From a virus, in IMG/VR virus record IMGVR_UViG_3300044695_002580, positions 1 through 64,000 of that record: 64,000 nucleotides of DNA. One strand, written 5' to 3'. Positions 4,902 to 39,709 of this stretch are shown here, piece after piece. Numbering within the stretch: the stretch's first letter is position 1; the number at the start of each line of letters is the position of its first letter. Under the pieces are notes generated by a model. It searched no databases. It worked only from the letters and a program-made list of their open reading frames with translations, and was not told the DNA's origin. The position numbers and the translations under genes were made by a program.

Positions 4902-5471
4902 TTACTTACCGCAGCAGGCGCAGCGGTCAGCTGCAGCTGGGGCCGCTGGGGCAGCGGCGGCCTTTGGTGCTCCTTTGAATTTAGGACGGCCAAAACCTAC
5001 GATAGAGATTTGGACCTTCTTAGGGTTCTTCTTATAAGCACGAAGCTTCTTAGACACCTGTCCGCCATTACGTTGTGAGCCCTTATCATCTGGGCTTGTG
5101 TTCCCCTCAATGCACCAAACGGTTCCATCGCCATTGTCCTTGATAACAATGCCTACATGAGAGATTCTATCGACGCCATCTGATGGGAAATCAAAATACG
5201 CAATATCTCCAGCATCTGGGTCAGCGATGTCTCCATCAATCCAAGCTCCAGCTTTCTTAAATGCTGCTGCACCACCTGGTGTGTAAACGGTATTAGGAAC
5301 CTTTACTCCAGCCTCGTTAGCGCACCAGTTTACGAAAGACCCACACCATGGCTGAAAGTTAGCCTTTGTGTAAGCGCCGTACTTGGTCTCATTGTCTTTA
5401 GGACCTTCGATGGTTCCTAGTTCTGCTGTTGCAACTTCAATAAGTTTAGCTGCTGTACCTTGGTCTGCCAT
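4902..5471 (-). CDS. endolysin, CHAP/NlpC-P60 amidase
   Basis: QPWCGSFVNWC, SHVGIV and IEGNT motifs; start MADQG. Confidence 0.85.
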   Translation of the reverse strand: MADQGTAAKLIEVATAELGTIEGPKDNETKYGAYTKANFQPWCGSFVNWCANEAGVKVPNTVYTPGGAAAFKKAGAWIDGDIADPDAGDIAYFDFPSDGVDRISHVGIVIKDNGDGTVWCIEGNTSPDDKGSQRNGGQVSKKLRAYKKNPKKVQISIVGFGRPKFKGAPKAAAAPAAPAAADRCACCGK

Positions 5472-5860
5472 TAGTCTTTGTCCCAATCTTCGTCAACTGG
5501 CTGCTCTTCAGGAACTTCGCCCTCAGCCTTTGTAGCAACAGCTACAGCTGCAGCGGCTACGCCAGCAGAAATTACAATGTCCTGTCCATTTTGCTTAGCT
5601 TCAACACGTAGGTCAGCTTCGCTCTTAGCCTTTGTATCAACTGCAGAGAATGCTGCGTTAATTTCATCAAGGTCAAGTCTGCCGTCATTCATAAAGCCGC
5701 GTGCTAGCTTCTCTACGACTGCGGCAACTGCTGTTAAACCAGCCACTGTTACAGCTGTGATGGTGTCGACGCCAGCGATAGCACCAGCACCGATAACTGA
5801 GAGACCGCTAGCAGCAAATACTGCAAGGATTCTCAGAAGAATGTTTCCTATTGATTTCAT
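5471..5860 (-). CDS. holin-like membrane protein
   Basis: Two N-terminal hydrophobic helices; immediately upstream of endolysin. Confidence 0.55.
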   Translation of the reverse strand: MKSIGNILLRILAVFAASGLSVIGAGAIAGVDTITAVTVAGLTAVAAVVEKLARGFMNDGRLDLDEINAAFSAVDTKAKSEADLRVEAKQNGQDIVISAGVAAAAVAVATKAEGEVPEEQPVDEDWDKD

Positions 5861-6031
5861 TTATTCCTCGTCTTTTGGGTTTCGTAGTGGGTAGGTAACA
5901 GCCCAAGCAAAGATAGTTGCCATAATTGCGTAACCGACGACTGTCTTTGCTGAACCGTCTAGTACAACCCAAGCAATGAACATGCCAAGCAGTGTCCATA
6001 GCTGGTCAATCATGTCTCTAACTATCTTCAT
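5861..6031 (-). CDS. small two-TM membrane protein (lysis cassette)
   Basis: Manual ORF MKIVRDMIDQLWTLLGMFIAWVVLDGSAKTVVGYAIMATIFAWAVTYPLRNPKDEE. Confidence 0.65.
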   Translation of the reverse strand: MKIVRDMIDQLWTLLGMFIAWVVLDGSAKTVVGYAIMATIFAWAVTYPLRNPKDEE

Positions 6032-8613: not shown

Positions 8614-8638
8614 AATTTCTCCTTAGTAGGAGTCTATC

Positions 8639-8836
8639 TTACTCTAAATTTAAGTAATTGTTAGGGTCAAATATATTTACAGACTTTAACTTTAGCGAGT
8701 CTGCTTTATCTTTTGCGTGGTGTCCGCAAAACATTAACTCTCCGTTAAGAAAGGTAACAATAACTTGTGCAGCAGCGCTGCAGGCATCACAGCGGTCTTG
8801 AGCGGTTAGCTGGCGGTTGACCTCTGTAGTTACCAT
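8639..8836 (-). CDS. small Zn-binding protein
   Basis: DRCDAC...LMFCGHH motif, familiar from actinobacteria and their phages. Confidence 0.6.
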   Translation of the reverse strand: MVTTEVNRQLTAQDRCDACSAAAQVIVTFLNGELMFCGHHAKDKADSLKLKSVNIFDPNNYLNLE

Positions 8837-8838
8837 GG

Positions 8839-8967
8839 TTATTTACCTTTCTTCTTCTTATCTTCTTTTTCGATAGAACGGGCTAGTTCATCTTGTGACT
8901 CTGCAGTCCAAGACCAGTCTACACCTTCTGGGATATCAAATTGAGACTCAGAACGCTTGTCTGTCAC
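8839..8967 (-). CDS. small hypothetical protein (42 aa)
   Basis: Manual ORF MTDKRSESQFDIPEG...; GTGA overlap with upstream gene. Confidence 0.55.
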   Translation of the reverse strand: MTDKRSESQFDIPEGVDWSWTAESQDELARSIEKEDKKKKGK

Positions 8968-9314
8968 TTGATGCCCTTTTCACGCTTTAACTTAGCTAAA
9001 GCAGCCCCGCTTACTGGTCCACCAAGCGTATCTGGATTATCGGTAGCCTCTTTAACTGTTGTTCTTAAATTAACAACGTTCTTTGCGCCAGCAATACCCT
9101 GAGAAACCTCACGGTCATATCGTTGTGCAGCGGTCATGCGACCAGTGATGTGTCCCTCTTCGTGGAACTGTTCAACAGCTCTATCTTTCAATGCTTGCTT
9201 GCTTGTACCCTTTGCACGCCTCATTTCAGGAGCGTACTTAGCCTGCATCTTAGATTGCATCTCAGACCTAATATCTTCTTGGCTAAGTCCAAACTGGTCG
9301 CCATTATGATTCAT
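8964..9314 (-). CDS. hypothetical protein
   Basis: ORF in tightly packed string. Confidence 0.6.
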   Translation of the reverse strand: MNHNGDQFGLSQEDIRSEMQSKMQAKYAPEMRRAKGTSKQALKDRAVEQFHEEGHITGRMTAAQRYDREVSQGIAGAKNVVNLRTTVKEATDNPDTLGGPVSGAALAKLKREKGIK

Positions 9315-9316
9315 TA

Positions 9317-9541
9317 TTAGTCCTTATACTTATCTGGGATACCCCAAGCACCACCAGGTGCTGGACGTGTTACCTTTACATCTTCCATACCTCTGCCTCT
9401 TGCAGAGTTAACACTATCAGCAAGACGAGCACGTAGAGGCTCGCCCCAATGCTCTGCACCATTACCTTTTGTTCTAGGCTTTGAACCTGCAGGATGAACT
9501 CCTACTAACGCGCTAAACTGACCACCGTCTTGATAGTTCAT
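9317..9541 (-). CDS. hypothetical protein
   Basis: ORF with ATGA overlap. Confidence 0.55.
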   Translation of the reverse strand: MNYQDGGQFSALVGVHPAGSKPRTKGNGAEHWGEPLRARLADSVNSARGRGMEDVKVTRPAPGGAWGIPDKYKD

Positions 9542-9831
9542 TTCTCATTCTCTTTCTTGCCTGCACGGCGCTTGTTCTCTTTTGCTGTGTTCTTACTGCG
9601 AGAGATGGCTCGTAGGTTGCCCTTGGAGTCATTATTATGGTTGTTGTCCTTATGGTCAACCGTAATATCCTTAGACTTAATTTTACCGTTTTTAGACTCA
9701 TAGTCAGCGCGAGCCTTATTCTTTGATGTGGTTACCCACTTACCGCCAACCTTTTTCTTATAAACATAGATTGGACGTCCACCATTGGCGTCAGAACCCT
9801 TATAAGGGCCAAACTTCTTTGTCTCTGCCAT
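9538..9831 (-). CDS. HNH-like small nuclease-fold protein
   Basis: VDHKDNNHNNDSKGNLRAISRSKN HNH signature. Confidence 0.65.
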   Translation of the reverse strand: MAETKKFGPYKGSDANGGRPIYVYKKKVGGKWVTTSKNKARADYESKNGKIKSKDITVDHKDNNHNNDSKGNLRAISRSKNTAKENKRRAGKKENEK

Positions 9832-10103
9832 TAGCAGTCCCACGCTCTCAATGACTTGTTAATACGGCTATTAGGGTCTTTAGCGGTCTTAGCGCTAGTG
9901 TTGACCTTCTTCATACCTTCCATACGTGCACAGAATGATTTACGACGTGCAGCAGACTTAGGTGACTTCTTAGCCTGTTCTTTTTTAACAGGAGGTTTTA
10001 AATTAGAACCAGGGTTAGCCTTCTCATAAGACTTACGGCCCTTCTCATTAAGACCGCCTTTAGCGTTCTTACCCTCTTTGCGTGTCCATGCTTCTGATGC
10101 CAT
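9831..10103 (-). CDS. conserved basic phage protein
   Basis: GGLNEKGRKSY...RRKSFCARM...SRINKSLRAWDC motif widespread in phages. Confidence 0.65.
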   Translation of the reverse strand: MASEAWTRKEGKNAKGGLNEKGRKSYEKANPGSNLKPPVKKEQAKKSPKSAARRKSFCARMEGMKKVNTSAKTAKDPNSRINKSLRAWDC

Positions 10104-10303
10104 TAGTGTGGGTTCTCCTTATGCCAGTCTTTGACGGCCTTAACGCCTTGCTTAATTGTCTTAGACCCACCCTTTTTTGTCAGGTTAATCTTGTCATACT
10201 TACCAGCCTTGGCTTTAGCCTCGTGGTCAACTACAACATCACCCTTTTTATTCTTTTTAACGGTGTGTTTAATACCTTGTACTTTAATTGTCTTTTTTGG
10301 CAC
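10103..10303 (-). CDS. small basic hypothetical protein
   Basis: Probable GTG start (VPKKTIKV) within track ORF 10103..10375. Confidence 0.5.
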   Translation of the reverse strand: MPKKTIKVQGIKHTVKKNKKGDVVVDHEAKAKAGKYDKINLTKKGGSKTIKQGVKAVKDWHKENPH

Positions 10304-10466
10304 GTTCGCTACGTTCTCTCTGCTCTGGGGCGTTTGCACACCCATGTGCATCTTTATGAAACATTTGGTACTCACCCTTGCGTCGGGTGCCTACCTTAAG
10401 GGCGTCTTCTCTAATCTCTCTACCGCAGTTCTCGCAGGTAGGAAATTGACCGCCACTTCTTTTCAT
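10284..10466 (-). CDS. small Zn-finger-like protein
   Basis: CENC...H...C; TAATG coupling to upstream gene. Confidence 0.5.
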   Translation of the reverse strand: MKRSGGQFPTCENCGREIREDALKVGTRRKGEYQMFHKDAHGCANAPEQRERSERAKKDN

Positions 10467-10768
10467 TAGTACATAGCTCCATTGTTTCCCTGTCCTGGGA
10501 ACCAGTTGTCAAAGTTTTCTTTTCTTCCGCCGCCCTGTTGGCCGCCGCCCATTGATGAGGTTACAGCGTGACCAATCATAGCACCGCGTACCATTGGGTT
10601 CTTAGCAGCTTTACCTAACATTGGAAGAGCTCTCTTTGCACCAGCAGAAATTGCTGGACCAACTACGCGAGATGCACCACGTGCTAACGCTGGGCCTGCT
10701 ACACGTGCAATTGCGGGGCCTGCAACGCGTGCTGCTACTCCAATTAAAGGTGCGATGAATGCTGGCAT
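10466..10768 (-). CDS. Ala/Gly-rich protein with RVAGPA repeats
   Basis: ARVAGPAI/ARVAGPAL/SRVVGPAI internal repeats. Confidence 0.55.
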   Translation of the reverse strand: MPAFIAPLIGVAARVAGPAIARVAGPALARGASRVVGPAISAGAKRALPMLGKAAKNPMVRGAMIGHAVTSSMGGGQQGGGRKENFDNWFPGQGNNGAMY

Positions 10769-11025
10769 TATCGGGTTCTCCTATTCAATGAACGGTTAAG
10801 AATATCTTGTGCTTGTTCAGATACATTGTATCTTCCGTATGATGGACGTGGCCCATCAAACATCCCGTTGGTATTCCGACGAATATCATCAGTCTTTTGC
10901 TTTGCTTTCGACGAAGGAGTTTTTTTGGTCTTTACACCTTTTTTCACTGCCTTCTTTGGATAAGCCTCACCTAATGCACGCTCTGCACGGGAACGTCCTG
11001 TTGCTGGGTCTTTCACTTCTTCCAC
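10768..11025 (-). CDS. hypothetical protein
   Basis: ORF in gene string. Confidence 0.5.
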   Translation of the reverse strand: MEEVKDPATGRSRAERALGEAYPKKAVKKGVKTKKTPSSKAKQKTDDIRRNTNGMFDGPRPSYGRYNVSEQAQDILNRSLNRRTR

Positions 11026-11213
11026 CCCTTTGGTCGCTTGCCGTATTGATAGGTGTTGCCGTAATACTCTTCTGTGCTCATTGTTGTTGGAAGCTGGTTA
11101 CGTCGTGGGAGATGAACTGATAGGTCGCCAGTCTCACGCTCATACTTAATCTTCTTAGGCTTCTCATCGCCAAGAGTGCGGAACTCCTCGAATGGGTCTT
11201 CTGATGGATTCAT
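11013..11213 (-). CDS. hypothetical protein
   Basis: ORF in gene string. Confidence 0.5.
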   Translation of the reverse strand: MNPSEDPFEEFRTLGDEKPKKIKYERETGDLSVHLPRRNQLPTTMSTEEYYGNTYQYGKRPKGWKK

Positions 11214-11295
11214 GGTCGGTTACGCTCGCAGATACAGTTGCAGTCATCAACATCACAGATTCCATAACGAATCTCATGGTCGCACTTGTAACACA

Positions 11296-11523
11296 TTATT
11301 CTGTCAATCCTAGAAATTGCATACCCTTTGTTAATCTTTGACCAAGTGTAGGTTTTGGATTGGCGATTGCCATCGCTTCATTATCGTGCTTAATTGTTGA
11401 TGGTAGGTCCATACGTGATGCACGACGGGATAAGGTCTTTGGAAAACCTTCGGCTCTGTTAGCCGCATAGGTATCTAGATGGTAGAGACGAGCCTCATCA
11501 AACTTTTGATTACGGTTTTCCAT
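11296..11523 (-). CDS. hypothetical protein
   Basis: ORF in gene string. Confidence 0.5.
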   Translation of the reverse strand: MENRNQKFDEARLYHLDTYAANRAEGFPKTLSRRASRMDLPSTIKHDNEAMAIANPKPTLGQRLTKGMQFLGLTE

Positions 11524-11525
11524 GT

Positions 11526-11753
11526 CTAAAGTCTAGTCTTATTGTGGTGGTAATACTCAATAAAAGCTAAGGTGAGCATATCCACCAATTGAGGTGAGTC
11601 TTTGTGCTTCTCTTGGAAATGGGCTTTCCATGCAACCGCGTTGAATTTACTCGAACCACATCCATTGTGAATATCTGTAAATACAACGCGTGCAAATTTG
11701 GAGGTACGTCCCTGATAATCCAGGGACTCCTCAAGAAAGTCGTAGAAGCTCAC
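11526..11753 (-). CDS. possible YozE/SAM-like protein
   Basis: (M)SFYDFL...KFARVVFTD resembles the YozE N-terminus; GTG start at 11753. Confidence 0.35.
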   Translation of the reverse strand: MSFYDFLEESLDYQGRTSKFARVVFTDIHNGCGSSKFNAVAWKAHFQEKHKDSPQLVDMLTLAFIEYYHHNKTRL

Positions 11754-11871: not shown

Positions 11872-12141
11872 TTAGCGACGCTTAGTTGATTTCTTAGCTG
11901 TCTTCTTGACAGCCTTTTTAGCAGTCTTCTTTACCGCCTTCTTGGCAGTCTTCTTGACTGGCTTCTTAGCAGTTTTCTTAGCGGCCTTCTTAGCCGCCTT
12001 CTTGCGTGCCTTAGGCTTCAAGATTTCATCCAACTCTTCTTCCCACACCTGTGCACCAGTTGTGAGGAACTTATCATCACGAAGAGCCTTGCCGACGATA
12101 GCTACGATAATTGCGAATACAACGATAATTAAAATTTCCAT
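11872..12141 (-). CDS. membrane-anchored protein with histone-H1-like KKTAKK tail
   Basis: N-terminal TM, C-terminal AKKAAKKTAKK repeats; leaderless TATGAT-6nt-ATG. Confidence 0.7.
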   Translation of the reverse strand: MEILIIVVFAIIVAIVGKALRDDKFLTTGAQVWEEELDEILKPKARKKAAKKAAKKTAKKPVKKTAKKAVKKTAKKAVKKTAKKSTKRR

Positions 12142-12247: not shown

Positions 12248-12334
12248 CCTGAGAGCCTCGGCGTGTCGCCTTTCCTGTGAGTTTCTAGGTTGTCGGCGTG
12301 TCGTGTAGGTGGGTGGGTGGCTATCTAGTAGCCT
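12248..12334 (+). promoter_or_regulatory. early-type promoter cassette P1
   Basis: CCTGAGAG 12248 + GGCGTGTCG 12260; CCTGTGAG 12274 + GGCGTGTCG 12295; -10 TAGCCT 12329. Confidence 0.75.
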
Positions 12335-12373
12335 TATCCCACGCCACCAGATAGGGGGCAAAAAGGGGGAATA

Positions 12374-12670
12374 ATGAAAACTATCAACCAAAAGCAAGCG
12401 GTTCAGGCTATCGCTAACCTAGAACCTTTCAAGGCGGGCTCACTCACAGGTGAGTGGGTTCGTGTCTCATTCTACTCAGGCAGACTCAGCGTGAGCCACC
12501 CTGAGTTAGCCAATCTATGCGAGACACTCAACAAGGGCGAAAGCGCCTATGTCGTGTTCTCATACTTTACGCCTATCGCATACGCCACAGAAAAGTGGCA
12601 CACAGTAACCGAAAAGTTCTCACCTACAACATCACGCCATCAATCCATAGTTAGAAAGGCGGTCGCATAA
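12374..12670 (+). CDS. hypothetical early protein
   Basis: SD GGGGGA; YVVFSYFTPIA...FSPTTSRHQ motif common in phage early genes. Confidence 0.7.
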   Translation: MKTINQKQAVQAIANLEPFKAGSLTGEWVRVSFYSGRLSVSHPELANLCETLNKGESAYVVFSYFTPIAYATEKWHTVTEKFSPTTSRHQSIVRKAVA

Positions 12671-12945
12671 TGGAAATGGAAAAGGCAAAAGTTCATCAGT
12701 TCTTGCGCTCTCTCAATGGCAAGTTCTTCACAGTGGAATTCATCAAGCGCACGACGGGGGAGGTTCGCGTAATGCGAGCCACCACCAACTACGAAAGCAA
12801 GTTAGCGGGAGGGGACTTAGGTTACGACGCTAACGAAAAGGCTCTCATTCCAGTATGGGACTTAGAAAAGAAAGCTTTCCGCTCAATCCCAACGGACGCG
12901 GTAGTTCGTATAGTAGCCCTAGGGAATACATACGAAATCAAGTAG
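12670..12945 (+). CDS. WYL-like/SH3 beta-barrel protein
   Basis: FTVEFIKRTTGEVRVM...VWDLEKKAFRSI pattern. Confidence 0.6.
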   Translation: MEMEKAKVHQFLRSLNGKFFTVEFIKRTTGEVRVMRATTNYESKLAGGDLGYDANEKALIPVWDLEKKAFRSIPTDAVVRIVALGNTYEIK

Positions 12946-12950
12946 GACAA

Positions 12951-12976
12951 GAGGCGCGGACTTCCCCCCGCGCCTC
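12951..12976 (+). terminator. 3' hairpin with pyrimidine (anti-SD) loop
   Basis: GAGGCGCGG/CCGCGCCTC stem, loop ACTTCCCC. Confidence 0.6.
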
Positions 12977-13073
12977 TCTCGATTCCCCGTAGGGGAATGG
13001 GGAGGGTGGGCCAACACAAACATAAGAACGGCATAGGGACTGGCAAAGGAACCCCAGGAATAATAAAGAGAAT

Positions 13074-13189
13074 TCTGTGAGTCGGGCGTGTCGGCTTGAC
13101 ACCCCACGCGGTCGGGCGTGTTGCCAATCCTGTGAGTTTTTAGACTTTCGGCGTGTCGCATTGTATCTATCAGGGCTATCAACTAGATT
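13074..13189 (+). promoter_or_regulatory. early-type promoter cassette P2
   Basis: TCTGTGAG 13074 + GGCGTGTCG 13085; GGCGTGTTG 13115; CCTGTGAG 13129 + GGCGTGTCG 13150; TTGTAT-17-TAGATT. Confidence 0.8.
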
Positions 13190-13219
13190 TATCTTATGAA
13201 CAGAGGGGGGGTGATTATT

Positions 13220-13522
13220 ATGGAAAACACAGAAAGCACTACCGCTATCGCGGAAATGTGGCAAGGTAGCGATGTTACTCGCCTAGTAGGCGCTAACGCA
13301 ACACTAACCAATGTCCGCACTGGTAGCACTATCACGGGGCGTATTACAAGCGCGAAGGTCAGCACTATCGCTAAGGACTCTGACCTTTATGTCGAAGGTC
13401 TATCTTTCGTCAGCGAAGTCAAGGTCGAAGGTATCTACGGGTCATTAGACCTAGCGACACCATTCATCAGCGACTGGGCACGCAAGTCGTATGACCACTG
13501 GCTAATCAACATTCAGGCGTAA
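13220..13522 (+). CDS. hypothetical early protein
   Basis: SD GGGGGTGA upstream of ATG 13220. Confidence 0.65.
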   Translation: MENTESTTAIAEMWQGSDVTRLVGANATLTNVRTGSTITGRITSAKVSTIAKDSDLYVEGLSFVSEVKVEGIYGSLDLATPFISDWARKSYDHWLINIQA

Positions 13523-13529
13523 GCCGCAA

Positions 13530-13556
13530 GGGGCAGGTGCTTCCCCCACCTGCCCC
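13530..13556 (+). terminator. intergenic hairpin
   Basis: GGGGCAGGTG/CACCTGCCCC stem, loop CTTCCCC. Confidence 0.55.
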
Positions 13557-13591
13557 ACTAATAACACTACTAGGGGAAAGGGGGGGACATC

Positions 13592-13753
13592 ATGGAAGTA
13601 GACCCACGCTATGCGATGGCTCAAGTCTATAAAGCTTTACGCGGTAAAGCAGAATTGACTGACCAGTTCACTGATGAAGTGAACAATTGCAACGGCCCAG
13701 CCGATGCATTCAAAATCTGCATGAAGTACCTATCGTTAGCAAACGCTTCATAG
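13592..13753 (+). CDS. small hypothetical protein (53 aa)
   Basis: Manual ORF MEVDPRYAMAQVYKAL... with strong G-rich SD. Confidence 0.6.
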   Translation: MEVDPRYAMAQVYKALRGKAELTDQFTDEVNNCNGPADAFKICMKYLSLANAS

Positions 13754-13759
13754 GTTGTT

Positions 13760-13787
13760 CAGCCCCGCGGCCGTTCCCGCGGGGCTG
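13760..13787 (+). terminator. GC-rich hairpin
   Basis: CAGCCCCGCGG/CCGCGGGGCTG. Confidence 0.55.
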
Positions 13788-13851
13788 GCGCAGTTTGTGT
13801 TGGCCCGCCCACCCCGTTCTATATTTATATAGGGAGTTAGGGAAAGAGAAT

Positions 13852-13912
13852 CCTGTGAGTTTCTCAGGATTCGGCGTGTCGCATTGATTGCTATCTACGC
13901 ATAGTTTAGAGT
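13852..13912 (+). promoter_or_regulatory. early-type promoter cassette P3
   Basis: CCTGTGAG 13852 + GGCGTGTCG 13873; TTGATT-17-TAGAGT. Confidence 0.8.
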
Positions 13913-13949
13913 TCCACTAGTAGCCAAGGGGGCTACGGGAAAGGGATAT

Positions 13950-14204
13950 ATGTCAGAAAAGTACTATTCTACTGGTAGGGATTTAACTATCTCAATGGTA
14001 GAAATCAAGGCTAACTCAATTGAGGAAGCCGAAGCGGTTATGCAACGATTCATAGATGTAATTAGTGAAGTTATGAAGGACGATGTACGCTGGGATGAAG
14101 CGGACTGGTCCATTCAAGAAAATACATTAACGGCAGAAGGTATCTACGAAGTTACCGACGAGTATGACTACCATAAGGGTCATAGAATAATTGAGGTGGC
14201 ATAA
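13950..14204 (+). CDS. acidic hypothetical early protein
   Basis: SD AAGGGA; VEIKANSIEEAE motif. Confidence 0.65.
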   Translation: MSEKYYSTGRDLTISMVEIKANSIEEAEAVMQRFIDVISEVMKDDVRWDEADWSIQENTLTAEGIYEVTDEYDYHKGHRIIEVA

Positions 14205-14350
14205 TGTGTTTTAAATGTGGGACTACGCAAGACGGTAATATTGTGCACAGTGGGACCGACGCATTCTGCCTCGGGGTAATCGAACACGTAGGGCGCATAT
14301 GCTATGACTGCGCTAATAAGGTTAACAAGAAGGAGCAGGTAAATGCCTAA
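14204..14350 (+). CDS. small Zn-finger protein (48 aa)
   Basis: Manual ORF MCFKC...ICYDCAN; TAATG coupling. Confidence 0.55.
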   Translation: MCFKCGTTQDGNIVHSGTDAFCLGVIEHVGRICYDCANKVNKKEQVNA

Positions 14351-14540
14351 TGAAATCATCTTCTACAACGGTTTCAACCTACTCGTGGATATCATCATCG
14401 CGGTCACCGTTGGATTCTTTGCCTACAGGTCAGGTAAAGCTTCAGGTTATATCCAAGGTTACGGTGAAGGTGAAGAAGACTATCGTGACAGTCTCGAACG
14501 ATACGCCGACTACGCGTACGAGGCCAGCCGCGAGCGCTAA
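14343..14540 (+). CDS. small single-TM protein
   Basis: SD AAGGAG; hydrophobic helix followed by GYIQGYGEG. Confidence 0.6.
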   Translation: MPNEIIFYNGFNLLVDIIIAVTVGFFAYRSGKASGYIQGYGEGEEDYRDSLERYADYAYEASRER

Positions 14541-14610
14541 CAAGTTTCTCGTAGACGTGGTTCCAGACTAGGACGTCCGCCACTTATACGTGAATGCATA
14601 ACCCCCTCAG

Positions 14611-14643
14611 GGCCCCAGTGGATATCCCTTCCCCACTGGGGCC
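14611..14643 (+). terminator. intrinsic terminator with anti-SD loop
   Basis: 11-bp GC stem, loop ATATCCCTTCC, followed by TTTT. Confidence 0.7.
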
Positions 14644-14669
14644 TTTTGCTTGCCCTATTAAACGAGAAT

Positions 14670-14751
14670 GTTTGTGTTGGGGCTTATGGGCGTGTGTGTA
14701 TAAACATTTCGATATATATCTTCATATACACACATAAGCCCCAACACAAAC
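14670..14751. repeat. GTTTGTGTTGG-bounded long hairpin, copy A1
   Basis: 19-bp perfect inverted repeat plus inner 8-bp stem. Confidence 0.85.
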
Positions 14752-14755
14752 CTTT

Positions 14756-14848
14756 CCTGAGAGTCGGGCGTGTCGCCCTGGTGCAATCCTGTGAATAATA
14801 AGACTATCGGCGTGTCGCTGATAAGGCTGAGAGATAAGAGTCTAGTAT
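14756..14848 (+). promoter_or_regulatory. early-type promoter cassette P4
   Basis: CCTGAGAG 14756 + GGCGTGTCG 14767; CCTGTGAA 14788 + GGCGTGTCG 14809; -10 TAGTAT 14843. Confidence 0.8.
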
Positions 14849-14893
14849 TAGGGCACGCGAGACGGTCTCGCGAATTGAAGGGGGGTGTGCCTT

Positions 14894-15901
14894 ATGGCGC
14901 ACGACTTGGAAATGGAGAACGGCGAGGTTGCCTTCGCGCTACGCGGGGCACCCGCTTGGCACGGTCTAGCAAACCGCACATTCTCCGCTGATGAGCATGT
15001 CTCAACTGCAGACATGCTCTCTGCTGCAAAACTAGACGGATGGAATGTCCGCCTAGAGGATGCGATTTATCCTGAAGGATACCGCACCAACTCTGACCTA
15101 TTCATGGTCACACGCACCAATCCATTCGATGCGGGCACTGACGTGCTTGCAATCGTCGGTAAGCGTTACCGCGTATTCCAAAACGAGGATTTATTCACCT
15201 TCGGTGATAACATCCTAGACGGTGGCGCATCATGGGAGTCTGCTGGCTCCATTAAAAACGGCAAGGTAGTCTTTGGCTCCCTAGTCGTACCTCGCGAGTT
15301 CATTCTCGACCCTAACGGCGCTGCTGATAAGACTACTACTTATCTGCTCGTTCATACATCACACGATGGCTCTGCATCAGTTCAAGCATCCATTACTCCA
15401 GTTCGCGTGGTCTGCCAAAACACGCTCCATGTCGCACTGAATAACACCAAGAGTTCATTCAAGTTGCGCCATACTCTCAAGGTAGAGGGTCGCGTTGCTG
15501 AGGCTCGCATGGCTCTTGGTCTCACCTTCAATTACATGGATGAATTCGAATCCATCGCTAAGTCTCTCTTTGAGACTCCAATGAACGCCGTTCAATGGGA
15601 TAAGTTGATTAACACAATTTACCCTAAGCCTGATGCTAACCAAGCGCCACAAGTGAGCACCAAGTGGCAGGCTAAGCGCGACCTACTGGATGATATTTAC
15701 TTCCAGTCTCCAACCCAGACCAACATCAAGGGCAATTACTGGGGCGCCCTCAATGCACTCACTGAGCGCATCGATTACTTCCGCACTGGTCGCACCGCCA
15801 ATGGCGAGGCGCTCATCGGAGCAGCCAGTGGGTTCGACCCAGTGGTCAATGCGGAAAAGTCCCGCATCCTCCGCGCCGTCCGCGAGTTAGCGAGCGCGTA
15901 A
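14894..15901 (+). CDS. DUF932/TIGR03299-family phage-plasmid protein
   Basis: MAH...PAWHGL, QNEDLF, ESAGSI, SHDGS, TPVRVVCQNTL, WGALNALTE motifs. Confidence 0.85.
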   Translation: MAHDLEMENGEVAFALRGAPAWHGLANRTFSADEHVSTADMLSAAKLDGWNVRLEDAIYPEGYRTNSDLFMVTRTNPFDAGTDVLAIVGKRYRVFQNEDLFTFGDNILDGGASWESAGSIKNGKVVFGSLVVPREFILDPNGAADKTTTYLLVHTSHDGSASVQASITPVRVVCQNTLHVALNNTKSSFKLRHTLKVEGRVAEARMALGLTFNYMDEFESIAKSLFETPMNAVQWDKLINTIYPKPDANQAPQVSTKWQAKRDLLDDIYFQSPTQTNIKGNYWGALNALTERIDYFRTGRTANGEALIGAASGFDPVVNAEKSRILRAVRELASA

Positions 15902-15908
15902 GCCTACT

Positions 15909-15936
15909 AAGCCCCCCGCATCCAGCGGGGGGCTTT
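15909..15936 (+). terminator. intrinsic terminator
   Basis: AAGCCCCCCGC/GCGGGGGGCTT followed by T. Confidence 0.65.
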
Positions 15937-15957
15937 GGCATGCTCAAAAGAAGCTGA

Positions 15958-15978
15958 TTATCCACAGCCTGTGGATAA
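15958..15978. promoter_or_regulatory. inverted pair of perfect DnaA boxes
   Basis: TTATCCACA-GCC-TGTGGATAA. Confidence 0.75.
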
Positions 15979-15980
15979 GT

Positions 15981-16070
15981 GTTTGTGTTGGGGGCTTACT
16001 GAACAGATACTAATACAAGGTATAGGTAGCGTTCATAACAGCACCTATACAGTAAGCCCCCAACACAAAC
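15981..16070. repeat. GTTTGTGTTGG-bounded long hairpin, copy A2
   Basis: 20-21-bp perfect inverted repeat, inner GTATAGGT/ACCTATAC stem. Confidence 0.85.
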
Positions 16071-16080
16071 CTTAGAGTCG

Positions 16081-16174
16081 GGCGTGTCTGAGAGTGTGGC
16101 GTGTCTGCTTTCCTGTGAGTTTTAGAGATTATGGGCGTGTCGTGAAAGAGATAGCAGACCCCTATGGTTAGATA
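16081..16174 (+). promoter_or_regulatory. early-type promoter cassette P5
   Basis: GGCGTGTCT at 16081 and 16098; CCTGTGAG 16112 + GGCGTGTCG 16134; -10 ambiguous. Confidence 0.7.
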
Positions 16175-16248
16175 CTCGTAGTGGAAATACCACTATTAGA
16201 GAGAAGGAGAAATCCAATGCTTGATAACCCAATCAAGGAACGACTCTA

Positions 16249-16710
16249 ATGATGAAGGGGGGTGATACTATCTTTACACGCAACAACGCTCAACTCATTG
16301 AGCAACAAGCCGTTCGCAACCCTATGGTTGATGGACAATACTTTACCAACATGACCGAACTACTTTGGTCTGATGGGACTATTACATTCGGTTGCCTCAA
16401 GTGTGGCGAACAAACCGAAAGCCGACCACAACTATCTATCCATGTGGGCAAGGCACACAATCCAAAGCCTGCTAAGACTACTAAGACTATTAAGTATAAA
16501 GCGGTCAAGGCAACAGGCACACGACCATACACCAAGCGCAACAAGGAATACTGGGCAAATGGTGGCAACATCAACCAAAATCGTAGAACAACAACCGACT
16601 CTACTCTAGCCGATAAGGAACTAGAGTTTTGGAAGGCGCAAGCGCACCGAGCAGAGGCTGAACTCCGCAAGGTAAAAGCGCAACTAAAAGCCCTACTAGA
16701 CATAAAGTAG
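16249..16710 (+). CDS. C2H2 zinc-finger protein with C-terminal coiled coil
   Basis: C-x2-C-x12-H-x4-H (CLKCGEQTESRPQLSIHVGKAH); start could be ATG 16249 or ATC 16270. Confidence 0.65.
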   Translation: MMKGGDTIFTRNNAQLIEQQAVRNPMVDGQYFTNMTELLWSDGTITFGCLKCGEQTESRPQLSIHVGKAHNPKPAKTTKTIKYKAVKATGTRPYTKRNKEYWANGGNINQNRRTTTDSTLADKELEFWKAQAHRAEAELRKVKAQLKALLDIK

Positions 16711-16790
16711 GCAGGGTTTCTCACCCCCCGTGAGATAGCACCTGAGCAAGTGGCTAAAAGGCTCACCACCAACTAACGAAGGGTAAGAAA

Positions 16791-17189
16791 GTGGCAACCA
16801 CTATAAAAGTAGATAGGCTAGTCCTATTAGATGCTCTACAAGTAAAATTGGCAGAGCAAGATAAACTCCGTGCCGAATACAAAAAGGCTGAGGAGAAATA
16901 CAAGAAAGAGCAGGAAGCCTTTGCTGATAAGGTTCTAGCATTGGCTAAGTCAGGCAAGTTAGAGGTTCATAGAGTCAATACCCGCACCTACAACGGCGGG
17001 CTGATTGAGGTTGAGTGGAAGGCTGACCGCGCACTCATCAACTCCGAACCACAGAGTCCTGACCGACCTGAGGGCTGGGTTCATGAAAGCGATTATGAGG
17101 AACTCCGTAAGACTATCAGATTGCTTAGCATGACGACAGAGCCTTATGTTCCTGCCTCAACTTATCGCGCAGTATCACAATGGCTTTAA
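16791..17189 (+). CDS. coiled-coil hypothetical early protein
   Basis: GTG start with purine-rich leader; helical charged sequence. Confidence 0.65.
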   Translation: MATTIKVDRLVLLDALQVKLAEQDKLRAEYKKAEEKYKKEQEAFADKVLALAKSGKLEVHRVNTRTYNGGLIEVEWKADRALINSEPQSPDRPEGWVHESDYEELRKTIRLLSMTTEPYVPASTYRAVSQWL

Positions 17190-17304
17190 TAGCATAGGGC
17201 TATTAAACACTCCTGAGCATGAGTATAAAAGGCTTCACCTTTGACATAGGGTGCTTTCGTAAGGGGTAGGACTATTATCTCCATTCTAGTCCTCCCGTGT
17301 TGTC

Positions 17305-17340
17305 AATAAGCCCCCCGCCTGTGGAGTCGGGGGGCTTATT
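17305..17340 (+). terminator. intrinsic terminator
   Basis: AATAAGCCCCCCG/CGGGGGGCTTATT. Confidence 0.7.
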
Positions 17341-17427
17341 GTTTGTGCTGGGCTTGCTGTAATAAGTAGCTATCACGGTATAGGTACGGATTTCATCTCT
17401 GCCTATACCAGCAAGCCCAGCACAAAC
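17341..17427. repeat. GTTTGTGCTGG-bounded long hairpin, copy A3
   Basis: 18-19-bp perfect inverted repeat with compensatory changes relative to A1/A2; inner GGTATAGGT/GCCTATACC stem. Confidence 0.85.
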
Positions 17428-17430
17428 TTT

Positions 17431-17515
17431 CCTGTGAACTCGGGCGTGTCGTATCCTGTGAGTTTTGGAGAACTCGGGCGTGTCGCTTTGGTGTGGAGAG
17501 AGATGAGAGTATTGT
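17431..17515 (+). promoter_or_regulatory. early-type promoter cassette P6
   Basis: CCTGTGAA 17431 + GGCGTGTCG 17443; CCTGTGAG 17455 + GGCGTGTCG 17477; -10 TATTGT 17510. Confidence 0.8.
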
Positions 17516-17543
17516 TCGCCTTACCCAATAGAAGGGGGTATGT

Positions 17544-18065
17544 ATGAACAGTTTAGAACGCAAAGAGCGTTTTACAGAACTGATGGCAACGATAGAGTTG
17601 TTGCCTAGTGTAGATGATGAAAACTACGAGCCTGTATTTCCTAAGGGAACACTAGGCTTATCAGATGGCAACCTCAAGACCGCAATCATGGCACAGGCTA
17701 TGAGAGGTGATGAGGACTTCGTTGGTAATCTTATCAACGCGCTCGCCAACACAGGCTTCGAGGCTTGCCACGCCAAGCATGAGGCTGATGAAACACCTAA
17801 CGACGACGACCTCTCCGCTATCACACTAGCAATCCATGTAGCGTGGGCGAGTGGCGCACTAGCCCCTATGCTACTCCTATTAGGTGGCATGGGTAAGATG
17901 TTATCTGCCCTAGATGTAGATGTGCCTGAGGATTTGCCACTCATTTTCCGTCCTAACGGCTTGATGGCTGATAAGGCAGGTAAGTTCGACCCGATAGCCC
18001 TACTAGACATGGATAAGGCTAGCCTTATCAAATACATGGCAAAGGAGTTGGGTGATGACGACTAA
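17544..18065 (+). CDS. acidic helical hypothetical protein
   Basis: SD GAAGGGGG; 173-aa ORF. Confidence 0.65.
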   Translation: MNSLERKERFTELMATIELLPSVDDENYEPVFPKGTLGLSDGNLKTAIMAQAMRGDEDFVGNLINALANTGFEACHAKHEADETPNDDDLSAITLAIHVAWASGALAPMLLLLGGMGKMLSALDVDVPEDLPLIFRPNGLMADKAGKFDPIALLDMDKASLIKYMAKELGDDD

Positions 18066-18276
18066 AATTGTAGATGGCGTAAAGATGGTAGAGGTGCCCT
18101 TCACAATTACTTACAATGTCCTCGTAGAGGAGCACAAGTACCTAGAGTATGTAACTTCGGGTATCCCAGTAGGTGCTATGGCACAGGCTGGTAAAGAAAC
18201 CCTATTAGATGTAACCAAGCCTGTTATAGATAAGGCTAATGAAAACTGGACAACTATGATGGTAGAGGTGGCGTAA
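18052..18276 (+). CDS. hypothetical protein
   Basis: SD AAGGAG; overlaps upstream gene. Confidence 0.6.
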   Translation: MMTTKIVDGVKMVEVPFTITYNVLVEEHKYLEYVTSGIPVGAMAQAGKETLLDVTKPVIDKANENWTTMMVEVA

Positions 18277-18791
18277 TGGGTATGGATGTCTATGGTACTA
18301 AGCCTACTAGCGAGAAGGGCGAGTATTTCAGAAATAACGTGTGGTGGTGGCGACCACTATGGGATTACTGTGAGCATGTAGCGCCCGAACTGTGTGAAGG
18401 CGTGAGTGCCCACTACAACGACGGAGATGGATTAAATGATGAGAAGGCCAAGGCGCTCTCTAAAATCCTTCTAGAAACCCTATCAGATGGCAGATGCCTA
18501 ATCTATGAGGCGCAGTACAACCTAGAGGTCTCGCAACTTCCTAATGAGGACTGCAATATATGTGATAAGACTGGCATACGCACCGACGAGGTGGGTAAAG
18601 AGCACGGCATGGATGTAAAAGCCCTATCAGATGATGAGGCTATCGTGTTAGGAAGGGAAACGGGCTGGTGTAATGGGTGTAACGGTCTTGGTTGGAAGCC
18701 AAACTGGGCAACTCACTATCCATTCTCGCGTGAGAACGTACAAGAGTTCGCAGAGTTCCTAGCAGAAAGTGGTGGATTCAGTATCTGCTAG
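18276..18791 (+). CDS. conserved phage early protein with Cys pairs
   Basis: MGMDVYG...GEYFRNNVWWWRPLW...FLAESGGFSIC family pattern; CNIC and CNGCNG. Confidence 0.7.
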   Translation: MGMDVYGTKPTSEKGEYFRNNVWWWRPLWDYCEHVAPELCEGVSAHYNDGDGLNDEKAKALSKILLETLSDGRCLIYEAQYNLEVSQLPNEDCNICDKTGIRTDEVGKEHGMDVKALSDDEAIVLGRETGWCNGCNGLGWKPNWATHYPFSRENVQEFAEFLAESGGFSIC

Positions 18792-18876
18792 GGTTACCCC
18801 CTTCAACTAATCCACCAAATAGGGCTAGCAAGCACCAGCTTGCTGGCCCTATCTCTTTGCCTGGCGGCGGCAGCAG

Positions 18877-19019
18877 AGTTTGTGTTGGCCCACCCATCGC
18901 TCATAATGTATTCAATTATACATTATTCGCTTTCCCACCCTTTATGACCTTTTTTAATATAAAAAAGGTCATTCTGCCCATTGGGCTATTGGCTTTAGCC
19001 ATATAGCCCAACACAAACT
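18877..19019. repeat. multi-stem variant of the GTTTGTGTTGG hairpin family
   Basis: AGTTTGTGTTGG/CCAACACAAACT closing three internal hairpins. Confidence 0.7.
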
Positions 19020-19043
19020 GTGGCGCATATCACATGAGAGATT

Positions 19044-19094
19044 CCTGTGAATACGGCGTGTCGGCTTGAGAGAGAAAGAGAGAGAGAATAGGCT
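19044..19094 (+). promoter_or_regulatory. early-type promoter cassette P7
   Basis: CCTGTGAA 19044 + GGCGTGTCG 19055; TTGAGA-17-TAGGCT. Confidence 0.75.
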
Positions 19095-19135
19095 AGGAGA
19101 TTTGCCGTTTCGGCTACTGCCACCCTAGCAGGGGG

Positions 19136-19151
19136 TGTGACCGCGCTCACA
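19136..19151. promoter_or_regulatory. CRP/GlxR-type box
   Basis: Perfect TGTGA-N6-TCACA; a one-mismatch copy TGTGG-N6-TCACA lies at 19019-19034. Confidence 0.6.
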
Positions 19152-19238
19152 GCCAGATTTAATAGCCCTATCTGCAAGGACTATGCGGATAATAGGCTTA
19201 TTGGAGAGAGAGGCAGGTATAAGTTACTCATGGGTAAC

Positions 19239-19299
19239 TCTGTGAGTTTTAGGGGGTATCGGCGTGTCGTCTTTAATATAGATAGAGAGTCACTACGCT
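19239..19299 (+). promoter_or_regulatory. early-type promoter cassette P8
   Basis: TCTGTGAG 19239 + GGCGTGTCG 19261; -10 TACGCT 19294. Confidence 0.75.
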
Positions 19300-19342: not shown

Positions 19343-20875
19343 ATGACTACCAACCTTGCGTTGCTCGTAGTGAGCAACACCGAACTAGAGGGGATTCCTG
19401 CACAGGCGCAGACTCTCCTTATTGGAACAGATACCGAGGTCTTAGGGTATCACCGCGTATCAAATGGTGCGAAGGGTCGAGGACAGGCGTGGCAGGTAAT
19501 GTCCGACCTTCCTACTAGCCCTATCTCACACTCTCCCGTTGCCGTCGTATTAAGCGACCGCGACCTAGTAATGCTTCAACTAGGGCAGATTACCAATGTC
19601 GGTATCAAAGCCCTATACGCCCTAGAAACCGCACCAACGGCTTCCGCGTCCTTCCCACACAATGAGGCAGTAGATAACCTTATCAAGCGCCTAGAGGAAG
19701 GCGACTCCACCCTTGCCGAGTTTATTGCAGATAAGCGACGCACACAGGCAGTAGATATTAAGCCTATCAAGCAGGGTGTATTACCAATTTCGGCGAACGC
19801 GACCGCGCCCGTCGTGCCTAACAAGCCTATTACTATCGAGGCTAATAGGACTATAAGTGACTCACTCGTCAATGCTATGGTGAGCGTACCCGACAAGGCG
19901 TTTAGTAAGGCTTATATCAACCGCAAGGTCGTAGGCGGTCTTACCGACTTCGAAATTATGGACTTCGCCATGAAGTCGAGCAAGAACGTACTTATCGAGG
20001 GTCACGCAGGTAGCGGTAAGACGGCTATGGTACAGGCGTATGCGTCTGCACGTGGATATCGGTATTTTAACGTCGCTTGCCATATTGGATTAGAGGCTTC
20101 ACACCTAATCGGTCGTTGGATTCCTACTCCCGAAGGACACTTCCGTTGGCAGGACGGCGCAGTTACAGAGATAGTCCGTAATGGTGGCGTACTCCTATTT
20201 AACGAGATTAACTTCGCACCCGAGCGTTTTCTCACCTTTATCTTTAGCCTATTAGATTACCGTCGTGAGATTCAACTCATGGAAAATGGTGGCGAGGTTA
20301 TCAAGGCTCACCCCGACCTACTTATCGTGGCAGATATGAACCCCGACTACCGAGGCACACGCCCACTCAACCAAGCGTTAGCCGACCGCTTCCCCGAGCG
20401 TTTGGTATTCCCATACGATAATGCTATCGAACAGAAGTTACTCGGTAGCAAAGCCCTATTAGATATGGCGAACCAACTCCGTACCGAGTTTGATAAGGGT
20501 ACTATCAACACCCCTATCTCTACCCGTAATCTAGTAGCCTTTGCAGATAACGCTAAGGCGCTAGGTATGGACTTCGCCACCTATTGCTATATCAACTCCT
20601 TCGAGGGAGATGAGGAACGTAGTGCAGTAAGACTATTACTCACCACTCACCGCGACAATATCGCTAGTGACTTCGGGCTACCAACCCTTAATAAGGCTAC
20701 CTTTGGCAATTCAAATACCGAACAAGCCATATTAAATACAGAAGTAGGCGCACAGATTGACGGCTTCGAGTCGCTAGTGCAGGACTCAACTCCCGAACTC
20801 AACGATATCCATGCAATAGATACCTTTATCAACGCACTTAATAACCCTATTGACGACGTGGTAGGTAGCAACTAA
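19343..20875 (+). CDS. MoxR/CbbQ/CobS-type AAA+ ATPase
   Basis: Walker A GHAGSGKT, Walker B variant LLFNEIN, MNPDYRGTRPLNQALADRF, STRNL. Confidence 0.85.
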   Translation: MTTNLALLVVSNTELEGIPAQAQTLLIGTDTEVLGYHRVSNGAKGRGQAWQVMSDLPTSPISHSPVAVVLSDRDLVMLQLGQITNVGIKALYALETAPTASASFPHNEAVDNLIKRLEEGDSTLAEFIADKRRTQAVDIKPIKQGVLPISANATAPVVPNKPITIEANRTISDSLVNAMVSVPDKAFSKAYINRKVVGGLTDFEIMDFAMKSSKNVLIEGHAGSGKTAMVQAYASARGYRYFNVACHIGLEASHLIGRWIPTPEGHFRWQDGAVTEIVRNGGVLLFNEINFAPERFLTFIFSLLDYRREIQLMENGGEVIKAHPDLLIVADMNPDYRGTRPLNQALADRFPERLVFPYDNAIEQKLLGSKALLDMANQLRTEFDKGTINTPISTRNLVAFADNAKALGMDFATYCYINSFEGDEERSAVRLLLTTHRDNIASDFGLPTLNKATFGNSNTEQAILNTEVGAQIDGFESLVQDSTPELNDIHAIDTFINALNNPIDDVVGSN

Positions 20876-23280: not shown

Positions 23281-23414
23281 TGCGCCTATCAAAGACGAGA
23301 GAGCAACTCCGCCGTATGCTAGAGTTACGGCGGAGTAATGCTTCCGTACCTATCCGTAATAAAAAGAGATACACTAGGAAACTTAAATATAAAGATAAGG
23401 ACTTAAATGAGTAA
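23280..23414 (+). CDS. small basic protein (44 aa), ArfA-like tail
   Basis: Manual ORF MRLSKTREQLRRMLELRRSNASVPIRNKKRYTRKLKYKDKDLNE. Confidence 0.55.
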   Translation: MRLSKTREQLRRMLELRRSNASVPIRNKKRYTRKLKYKDKDLNE

Positions 23415-23856
23415 CAACGAGGAAATCTACGACGCAGAAGTTATTTACGACAGCGCCACCGACTCCACCACCGCCACCACCGAGGGCGAGATAATTGATA
23501 TAGAGGAACCAAGCGATTATTGGAAACTCGTAGCCTTCCACCTACAAAATAATCACAACCCAAGTATTCCTATTAGCATGACCGACGTATGTATTAAGGC
23601 TATCGAATACGCTAACAAGAAGGATTGGGGCGTACTAATAGCCCTACCCGACGGAACTACCTACAAGGGAAGCACCCATGCAACAGTAGAAACTATCGTG
23701 GAGAGCCACCACCTTCATAACTTTATTACCAGCGACCGAGAGGTCGTAACGATTAAGGACGCTGAAGGCGCGGTCATATATCAAGGTTATGGCACAGAAC
23801 TAAAATTAAATACAGAAACAAATACAGAAGTAGAGAGCGATGACGACCAACAGTAA
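23407..23856 (+). CDS. hypothetical protein
   Basis: HLQNNHNP...IALPDG...IVESHHLH pattern; SD AAGGA. Confidence 0.6.
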   Translation: MSNNEEIYDAEVIYDSATDSTTATTEGEIIDIEEPSDYWKLVAFHLQNNHNPSIPISMTDVCIKAIEYANKKDWGVLIALPDGTTYKGSTHATVETIVESHHLHNFITSDREVVTIKDAEGAVIYQGYGTELKLNTETNTEVESDDDQQ

Positions 23857-39391: not shown

Positions 39392-39709
39392 CTAGACCTT
39401 ATCATCAAATAGGTGTTCCTTTAAAGTGGTTCCATCTTTTTTTAATTTACGTTTTAGCGCGTTGCGTTCACGGTGGCTAAGGCCACCCCAGATACCGTGC
39501 TGTTCATCCATCTGTTCGGAGTACAGCAGGCATTCCTTGCGTACAGGGCACTCTGGTAAACCATCTTTACCAAAGCATACGCCCTTGGATACTTCTGCTA
39601 TTTTTCTATATTTAGTTTTGTCACGTGGAGGAAACCAAAGCTCGGTATCCATGCCACGACACTTAGCGTTGTGTCGCCAGCCCTCTACGTGCCCTGCGTC
39701 GTTGAACAA
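39392..39709 (-). CDS. whiB: WhiB-family Fe-S transcription factor
   Basis: WRHNAKC...C...CPVRKEC...HGIWGGLSHRER. Confidence 0.92.
   Translation of the reverse strand: MFNDAGHVEGWRHNAKCRGMDTELWFPPRDKTKYRKIAEVSKGVCFGKDGLPECPVRKECLLYSEQMDEQHGIWGGLSHRERNALKRKLKKDGTTLKEHLFDDKV

Follow-up and report, generated by a model that had tools for sequence, protein, structure and literature searches.

The viral genome studied here, which we call W, is the IMG/VR record IMGVR_UViG_3300044695_002580, a contig of 96,881 bases and 46% GC, and its first 64 kb constitute the window analysed. The sole long block on the + strand is an island extending from 12.2 to about 25 kb, nearly all else being on the - strand. 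Its products, according to our own crude calls of open reading frames (ORFs), are small proteins without known function, a DUF932 protein, an AAA_5 ATPase, a VWA protein and a pyrimidine-dimer glycosylase. The island is punctuated by eight promoter-like cassettes, P1 to P8, built from two short words, Box B (pattern GGCGTGTCK) and Box A (pattern YCTGWGAR), and from hexamers resembling the -35 and -10 elements of bacterial promoters:

12248..12334, + strand: P1, with Box A at 12248, Box B at 12260, Box A at 12274, Box B at 12295 and the -10-like TAGCCT at 12329-12334; gene start at 12374.
13074..13189, + strand: P2, with Box A at 13074, Box B at 13085, a degenerate Box B at 13115, Box A at 13129 and Box B at 13150; core promoter TTGTAT-17-TAGATT, its -10 at 13184-13189.
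13852..13912, + strand: P3, with Box A at 13852, Box B at 13873 and TTGATT-17-TAGAGT (-10 at 13907-13912); gene start at 13950.
14756..14848, + strand: P4, with Box A at 14756, Box B at 14767, Box A at 14788, Box B at 14809 and the -10-like TAGTAT at 14843-14848; followed by the DUF932 gene, 14885-15901.
16081..16174, + strand: P5, with Box B at 16081, Box A at 16087, Box B at 16098, Box A at 16112 and Box B at 16134; the -10 is ambiguous, either TATGGT at 16163-16168 or TAGATA at 16169-16174.
17431..17515, + strand: P6, with Box A at 17431, Box B at 17443, Box A at 17455, Box B at 17477 and TTTGGT-17-TATTGT (-10 at 17510-17515); gene start at 17544.
19044..19094, + strand: P7, with Box A at 19044, Box B at 19055 and TTGAGA-17-TAGGCT (-10 at 19089-19094).
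19239..19299, + strand: P8, with Box A at 19239, Box B at 19261 and the -10-like TACGCT at 19294-19299; followed by the AAA_5 ATPase gene, 19343-20875.

Box B is the 9-mer GGCGTGTCG, two copies of which end in T. The window contains 14 copies, every one on the + strand between 12260 and 19269, when 0.55 were expected, and none of 100 shuffles reached that number. All 14 sit in seven non-coding gaps. A first-pass annotation of this DNA had described about 14 intergenic boxes in a single orientation, which agrees with our count, and had proposed a genome-wide count of the motif. With the 8-mer core of Box B, this count gave 15 forward and 0 reverse copies in the whole W genome; 14 of them are inside one 7-kb island, and the sole copy beyond it, at 80018, lies within a coding stretch. 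Multiple copies of one short site, asymmetric or conserved, that go with transcription units are also found in the stoperators of cluster A mycobacteriophages and in the early-promoter and conserved inverted repeat (CIR) families of phiC31. Stoperators are spread genome-wide and read by a phage repressor, whereas the W sites lie in one island, are promoter-proximal and match the motif of a host factor. We rejected stoperator-type repressor sites as an explanation on account of this confinement and because no repressor or helix-turn-helix protein was recognised.

The start of a Box A precedes 13 of the 14 Box B copies by either 11-12 nt (n=6) or 21-22 nt (n=7), with an expectation of 0.0125; the Box B at 16081 is the only one without a Box A. 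These two distances were already noted in the first-pass annotation, whose list omitted the pair 16087/16098. Its further proposal of helical phasing holds for the A-to-B spacing, which changes in steps of about one turn, but not for the B-to-B distances within cassettes, which are unphased (17, 34, 35, 36, 42 and 65 nt). The usual cassette starts with a distal short unit (Box A, 3-4 nt, Box B), followed by a proximal long unit (Box A, 13-14 nt with a T-run, Box B), and the second, distal A-B unit is present in five of the eight. Past the boxes come a weak -35-like hexamer, an unconserved spacer of 17-18 nt, TAGnnT, a leader of 20-80 nt, a ribosome-binding site and the start codon.

A TAnnnT hexamer begins 24-25 nt past the last Box B in seven of the eight cassettes, the same count as had been reported before, and the three TTGnnn-17-TAnnnT promoters then singled out, those of P2, P3 and P7, are correct. 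The exception is P5, where the last Box B (16134) is followed by TATGGT at 20 nt and by TAGATA at 26. The consensus of the -10-like hexamers is TAGnnT, with T in the last column in all eight cassettes, and a TTG comes 2 nt after the last box in five or six of them. In seven to eight of the eight, TAnnnT has a -35-like hexamer 17±1 nt upstream, and the distance to a start codon equipped with a ribosome-binding site is 20-80 nt. With the -10 set at -12 to -7, Box B covers positions -46 to -38, approximately. Since the length of the spacer is constant while its sequence varies, we argue that selection on geometry, rather than recent copying, shapes the cassettes.

It could be proposed that the boxes have no promoter role and act as decoys for the host regulator WhiA during genome replication, or as patches of homology in mobile promoter-hairpin cassettes by which small genes are shuffled, as the promoter-stem-loop cassettes of T4-type phages would suggest by analogy. 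The presence of 14 high-information copies per genome would suit such a role, and so would the gene content of the island, which is mosaic between sibling phages: identical slots, bordered by conserved hairpin arms, hold ORFs unrelated to each other. However, the distance to the -10 is constant within 1 nt despite the unconserved intervening sequence, which points to contact with RNA polymerase, and a decoy needs neither a single orientation nor a promoter-proximal place. We consider this explanation quite unlikely.

The identity of Box B points to WhiA more directly. In Mycobacterium tuberculosis, chromatin immunoprecipitation sequencing (ChIP-seq) of WhiA and in vitro IDAP-seq with the purified protein both yield the 8-mer GACACGCC, and ChIP-seq of WhiB2 gives a motif identical to that of WhiA (PMC13473873). 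The earlier ChIP study of Minch reported an 11-mer, with an extra C in front and an extra G behind, and the one-hybrid motif of M. smegmatis is cGACACGc; in vitro, activation requires WhiA plus WhiB2 (PMC13473873). The WhiA pentamer of Streptomyces is GACAC. All 14 boxes in W contain GTGTC, which is GACAC read on the other strand, and the reverse complement of Box B equals the extended WhiA/WhiB2 motif at nine of nine positions, a tenth being matched as well by seven of the 14 copies. Moreover, at 195 phage sites (not selected by the search pattern) G follows the 8-mer in 88% and C precedes it in 59%, compared to a background of 19%, and these flanking positions coincide exactly with both additional positions of the published 11-mer. 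It could be objected that a WhiA site should have fewer than nine conserved bases; because the extended motif matches all nine, this objection is reversed and becomes the strongest support for a WhiA site.

The same letters would fit a different promoter element. The published consensus of the mycobacterial extracytoplasmic function (ECF) sigma factor SigL has TGAACC at -35 and CGTGTC at -10, so that the long A-13/14-B unit could be an ECF promoter of the SigL type, in which CGTGTC is the -10, the core of Box A the -35, the spacer 16-17 nt and the start directly after Box B. The -10 is indeed equal to the published one, and the long units of W read CTGTGA-N16/17-CGTGTC. However, this -35 differs from TGAACC, so the units are not SigL promoters as published, and neither the short units (A-3/4-B) nor the B-only sites of other phages have a partner at that spacing; in a distant phage locus (L001) the A-to-B start distances are 17, 21 and 30. 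Furthermore, the conserved positions beyond CGTGTC fit the WhiA motif, profile searches found no sigma domain encoded in W, and TAGnnT is locked in position 25 nt downstream. A SigL-type promoter is therefore very improbable.

From all this we lean towards taking the eight cassettes as sigma-A-type promoters in which host WhiA, together with a Wbl partner, reads a WhiA-type operator placed at about -46 to -38. The first-pass annotation had likewise taken the boxes as WhiA motifs at promoters, and here the likeness goes beyond GACAC to the full nine positions; the geometry differs from that of the known complex, as discussed below. In the mechanism that we propose, WhiA of the host, and not a phage-encoded protein, would bind the proximal Box B (centred at about -42) through its C-terminal helix-turn-helix, and a Wbl protein seated on sigma region 4, either a host WhiB2-type protein or the phage WhiB, would together with WhiA raise initiation at promoters with a weak -35. 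Cooperativity, or another input, could come from the distal A-B unit and from Box A. On this scheme, the genes of the island would be on in hosts that grow and divide, or from the appearance of phage WhiB onwards, and their expression would follow a growth and cell-cycle regulator of the host. We infer from the sequence that WhiA binds, that it activates rather than represses, where transcripts start and to which timing class they belong.

Box B also recurs in other phages, and arrays of it that stay within 3-7 kb are present in many viral contigs of low GC that encode WhiB. We scanned IMG/VR for two B boxes placed 8-38 nt apart and obtained at least 118 loci, when by our own estimate about 50 would be expected by chance. 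Among the matches listed, the high-GC loci resemble coding repeats, and 58 of the 117 retrieved loci have at most 45% GC, most of them with 4-9 strand-biased copies of Box B per ~10 kb. In the low-GC loci listed, only 33 of 366 sites are inside ORFs of at least 90 aa, compared to a background of 50%. All five long array contigs among the matches listed encode a WhiB-family protein, and in all five the 6-9 copies are contained within 3-4 kb, a composition-matched control word having 0 copies. Additionally, about half of the low-GC array loci listed hold relatives of the DUF932 protein of the island or of a very acidic protein described further below. Distant loci (L001, L010-L014 and L017-L020; 36-52% GC) have several Box B copies each, often 2-3 nt before TTGACA-like hexamers, and include TTGACT-17-TATAAT promoters whose -10 is exactly 25 nt from the box. 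In other phages overall, 13 of 56 Box B sites have a TTGAnn 2-3 nt further on, with a background of 4.5%.

Box A is less general. Pairs with Box B occur in W, L001 and L011, the last of which also has tandem Box A pairs 11 bp apart, and in the sibling phage G002 (locus L003) Box A is the second word after a DnaA-like word. No linkage of Box A to Box B was found in the low-GC phages, and we discarded it as a general partner of Box B for this reason. We observed other arrangements in low-GC phages, namely CRP-type palindromes at a fixed 22 nt before Box B (L054, L091 and L155) and triple tandem B boxes flanked by a DnaA-like word and its inverted partner.

The closest relatives of W use the same promoter slots with different words. 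A megablast search of the island against cultured phages gave no match, and 19 IMG/VR loci encode relatives of the island DUF932 protein. The closest of these (G001/L002, G002/L003 and L004-L008) retain the hairpin arms and the downstream promoters, and G001 and G002 have DUF932 proteins 83-91% and WhiB proteins 88-90% identical to those of W, whereas the whole genomes of G001-G003 contain just one Box B each. In these siblings the slots hold a 12-mer with a perfect DnaA-box 9-mer core (TGTGGATAA), and behind it a second word, different from phage to phage. The DnaA-box 9-mers lie on the island strand and are concentrated there:

G001 (L026), 5000-11670, island strand: DnaA-box 9-mers, 11 of 11 copies in the island.
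G002 (L025), 80798-87103, island strand: DnaA-box 9-mers, 9 of 10 copies in the island.
G003 (L034), 73697-78863, island strand: DnaA-box 9-mers, 6 of 7 copies in the island, some forming inverted pairs with a TTGTCCACA-type box.

Of the orthologous P7 promoters, those in L008 and L011 have retained Box B and that in G001 has not. In G001 (L026, for example at 9844-9915) we observed the DnaA-like word followed by two 6-mers of the GTGAAC / ATGAAC type 11 bp apart, a layout like that of the direct repeats of OmpR-family (MtrA- or PhoP-type) regulators, although we make no claim of likeness to the published MtrA consensus, which is matched only loosely. Another phage, G004 (L040; 107 kb, 38% GC), has five perfect CRP-type palindromes (TGTGA-N6-TCACA) at about 81269-87212, confined to the equivalent island.

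W encodes a Wbl protein of its own:

39392..39709, - strand: phage whiB (Wbl family), Pfam Whib E 1.2e-16.

This gene had been assigned to WhiB from the sequence in the first-pass annotation, and the profile match bears that out. The best solved relative of the protein is the Streptomyces venezuelae WhiB of the WhiA/WhiB/RNA polymerase complex 8DY7, with WhiB1 also among the best, and its nearest cellular homologues, at most 44% identical, are in Actinomycetota; the DUF932 relatives are from actinophages, and an actinobacterium is the candidate host of W. Because the proteins of the single-box siblings G001 and G002 are nearly identical to it, C-terminus included, WhiB cannot set the specificity for the box, and we ruled it out as the specificity reader. 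On the sequence evidence it can be a partner of the reader. Profile searches of W found no Sigma70_r2 (PF04542), Sigma70_r4 (PF04545) or HTH_WhiA domain, nor a T7-type RNA polymerase (PF00940), this last being a weak negative as the PF00940 control matched nowhere. Promoters for an RNA polymerase or sigma factor of the phage's own were discarded on these results.

The exchange of words among siblings bears on whether Box B is read by another sequence-specific protein, from the phage or from the host, so that the match to WhiA would be coincidence or convergence. Candidates would be a small early protein or a factor delivered with the virion, acting as an activator or as a repressor that shuts off early genes. 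The siblings exchange the word and keep promoters and hairpins, as would be expected of a mobile regulator-operator pair. Furthermore, W has specific small ORFs in the island (13196-13522 and 13950-14204), an unrelated ORF fills the same slot in G001, and many island proteins have no recognisable family. However, Pfam and PHROGs searches with ~45 small or island proteins of W gave no DNA-binding family, the W-specific ORFs included, and no protein was common to the Box B phages and missing from the siblings across the fetched loci. In addition, the protein most commonly linked to the arrays is very acidic (149 aa) and an unlikely DNA binder, and a chance match at nine of nine positions to one particular published motif is improbable. 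One 9-11-mer kept in phages of 35% to 52% GC fits better with a host reader conserved across Actinomycetota. We therefore regard such another reader as rather unlikely.

Returning to a WhiA-dependent promoter, several of our observations weigh against it. In the sepX complex of S. venezuelae, solved by cryo-electron microscopy (8DY7), the order from upstream to downstream is the site of the alpha C-terminal domain, the WhiA pentamer, a 7-bp stretch that is held by WhiB and begins GCC, and the -35. Box B is inverted with respect to this order, and its pentamer is ~3 nt from the -35-like hexamer, compared to ~7 in sepX, a shift of ~4 bp towards the -35 and into the place of WhiB in the structure. 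At this spacing WhiA and Wbl might compete rather than cooperate. Good -35 elements occur in only ~4 of the 8 cassettes, the others being weak, and a generic sigma-70 scan flags none of the eight. WhiA can act as a repressor too. Moreover, Box B is dispensable or replaceable, because the closest relatives put a different word in the same slots. Finally, the 9-mer is unevenly over-represented in 156 Actinomycetota genomes, with mixed ratios to a control word (362 vs 73 in G101, 154 vs 278 in G034), a survey that is uninformative and decides nothing; it included seven unpublished genomes (G011, G028, G058, G078, G098, G130 and G156), on which no claim depends.

Regarding the geometry, WhiA targets vary in orientation and spacing, which was credited to a flexible linker, and WhiA with WhiB2 activates from sites directly upstream of the -35. 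The phage arrangement is thus permitted, yet it is not the solved one. Read contiguously, the 8-mer in sepX would fill nearly the same 10-bp window in the opposite orientation. Repression by WhiA and titration of WhiA by the boxes are possible, with nothing specific in support. The ideas of the first-pass annotation that phage WhiB acts as a switch or competitor, and that titration of WhiA blocks division, are speculation.

Compared to the known WhiA/WhiB(WhiB2) promoters (sepX, and dnaE1, dnaB and sepF of M. tuberculosis), the cassettes share the GACAC core with the GCC extension and the preceding C, a site directly upstream of the -35, here of putative sigma-A promoters, and a Wbl protein present in the system. 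In addition, the site that a WhiA monomer binds is asymmetric, as is Box B. They differ in belonging to a phage and not to a host, in having two or three tandem boxes per promoter, and in the extra Box A. WhiB7-dependent promoters also have a short element abutting the -35 and a factor on region 4 of sigma-A; their motif is AT-rich and contacted by the AT-hook of WhiB7, whereas Box B is GC-rich and of 9-11 nt, and the phage WhiB shows no co-variation with the box and is nearer to WhiB/WhiB1. Class II activator sites, such as those of CAP and lambda cI, lie near -41.5/-42 and have been compared with WhiA/WhiB (PMC10243135). Box B has its centre at about -42 and abuts the -35 in the same way, and its fixed spacing implies contact with RNA polymerase, although it is asymmetric and of monomer type, not a palindrome.

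Why whiB is so common among actinophages, in mycobacteriophages as well as in abundant freshwater phages, is a long-standing question. WhiA/WhiB2 consensus words set against the -35 of phage promoters, recurring in phages with whiB, make it directly testable. Judging by sequence, our data suggest that WhiA boxes plug the island genes into the cell-cycle control of the host, which may explain the carriage of whiB. If WhiA with WhiB2 or phage WhiB switches these promoters on, a phage gene block would be tied to an essential regulator of cell division and replication in the host. A phage promoter using WhiA/Wbl would be new as a type, host-factor dependence as such being already known, and in the literature searched we found no paper tying WhiA sites to phage promoters.

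We also offer, tentatively, a broader possibility: a large clade of whiB-encoding, mostly uncultured actinophages may drive one island from promoters dependent on host WhiA and a Wbl protein, which could be the phage WhiB itself, with the upstream slot as a plug-in socket into which siblings swap DnaA-box 9-mers plus direct repeats phased at 11 bp, or CRP-type palindromes. If so, the same genes would be wired to different regulators of the cell cycle or physiology of the host, and phage whiB would gain a concrete job. The swapping of boxes among siblings would then amount to a natural experiment on the way phage promoters exchange one host input for another.

Among cultured phages, the Streptomyces phages of cluster BE (Stanwilliamsviridae, for example Jay2Jay) have the nearest relatives of the island DUF932 protein (~52% identity). 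Their early regions share with the island many short genes, and ahead of each come a terminator hairpin, a word that is conserved, and a promoter resembling TTGTAT-17-TAGACT; they differ in that the word is CCCGGACA(c) instead of Box B and that the region is in an 11-kb terminal repeat. In Jay2Jay (L042, 1-10800), CCCGGACA(c) lies between the terminator and the TTGTAT-17-TAGACT promoter in the intergenic regions of the terminal repeat, and several copies read GACAC, giving GTGTC...GACAC inverted pairs. That the island of W is an 'early' block, as its layout and the likeness to the terminal-repeat regions of cluster BE might indicate, remains speculation.

Each unit of the island follows the order of gene end, GC hairpin with a T-run, long and very stable hairpin, gap of 0-5 nt and cassette:

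14609-14645: GC hairpin with T-run, upstream of the long hairpin before P4.
14669..14751, + strand: long hairpin before P4, z about -8, with arms conserved in relatives; it ends 0-5 nt ahead of P4.
15980-16070, 17341-17427 and 18878-19018: equivalent long hairpins, with half-sites at 13011 and 13793.

The long hairpins measure 82-140 nt, with z about -8, and every one ends directly ahead of a promoter cassette. Their arms are conserved in sequence among phages with just 59-91% protein identity. They may serve as a processing site, an insulator or a recombination patch. The sole matches in an Rfam search were hairpin look-alikes that stayed below threshold.

Between the terminator and the long hairpin of P5, positions 15958-15978 hold a perfect inverted pair of DnaA-box 9-mers 3 nt apart, which are the only two copies of this 9-mer in W. 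Between P7 and P8, 19095-19238 is a stretch of ~150 nt without a convincing ORF, perhaps the source of a small RNA or else a structured leader, with no Rfam match above threshold. The P7 leader contains a GGCTACTGCC word, another copy of which is at 12155, and parts of this leader recur in relatives. At the left border of the island, 11872-12141 on the - strand encodes an 89-aa protein with lysine/alanine-rich repeats of 12-nt period, like the tails of histone H1 or HU; its gene opens the leftward block, which diverges from P1, and a promoter-like TTGATT-17-TATGAT lies on the - strand at 12176-12148. The ends of the W contig (1-252 and 96630-96881) overlap by 252 bases with 2 mismatches and W is therefore circularly permuted or terminally redundant, although its IMG/VR class is linear. 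Lastly, the very acidic 149-aa protein, encoded at 23407-23856 and without a family, is the most frequent array neighbour (30 of the 58 low-GC array loci listed) and may be a DNA mimic or an inhibitor of a host protein.

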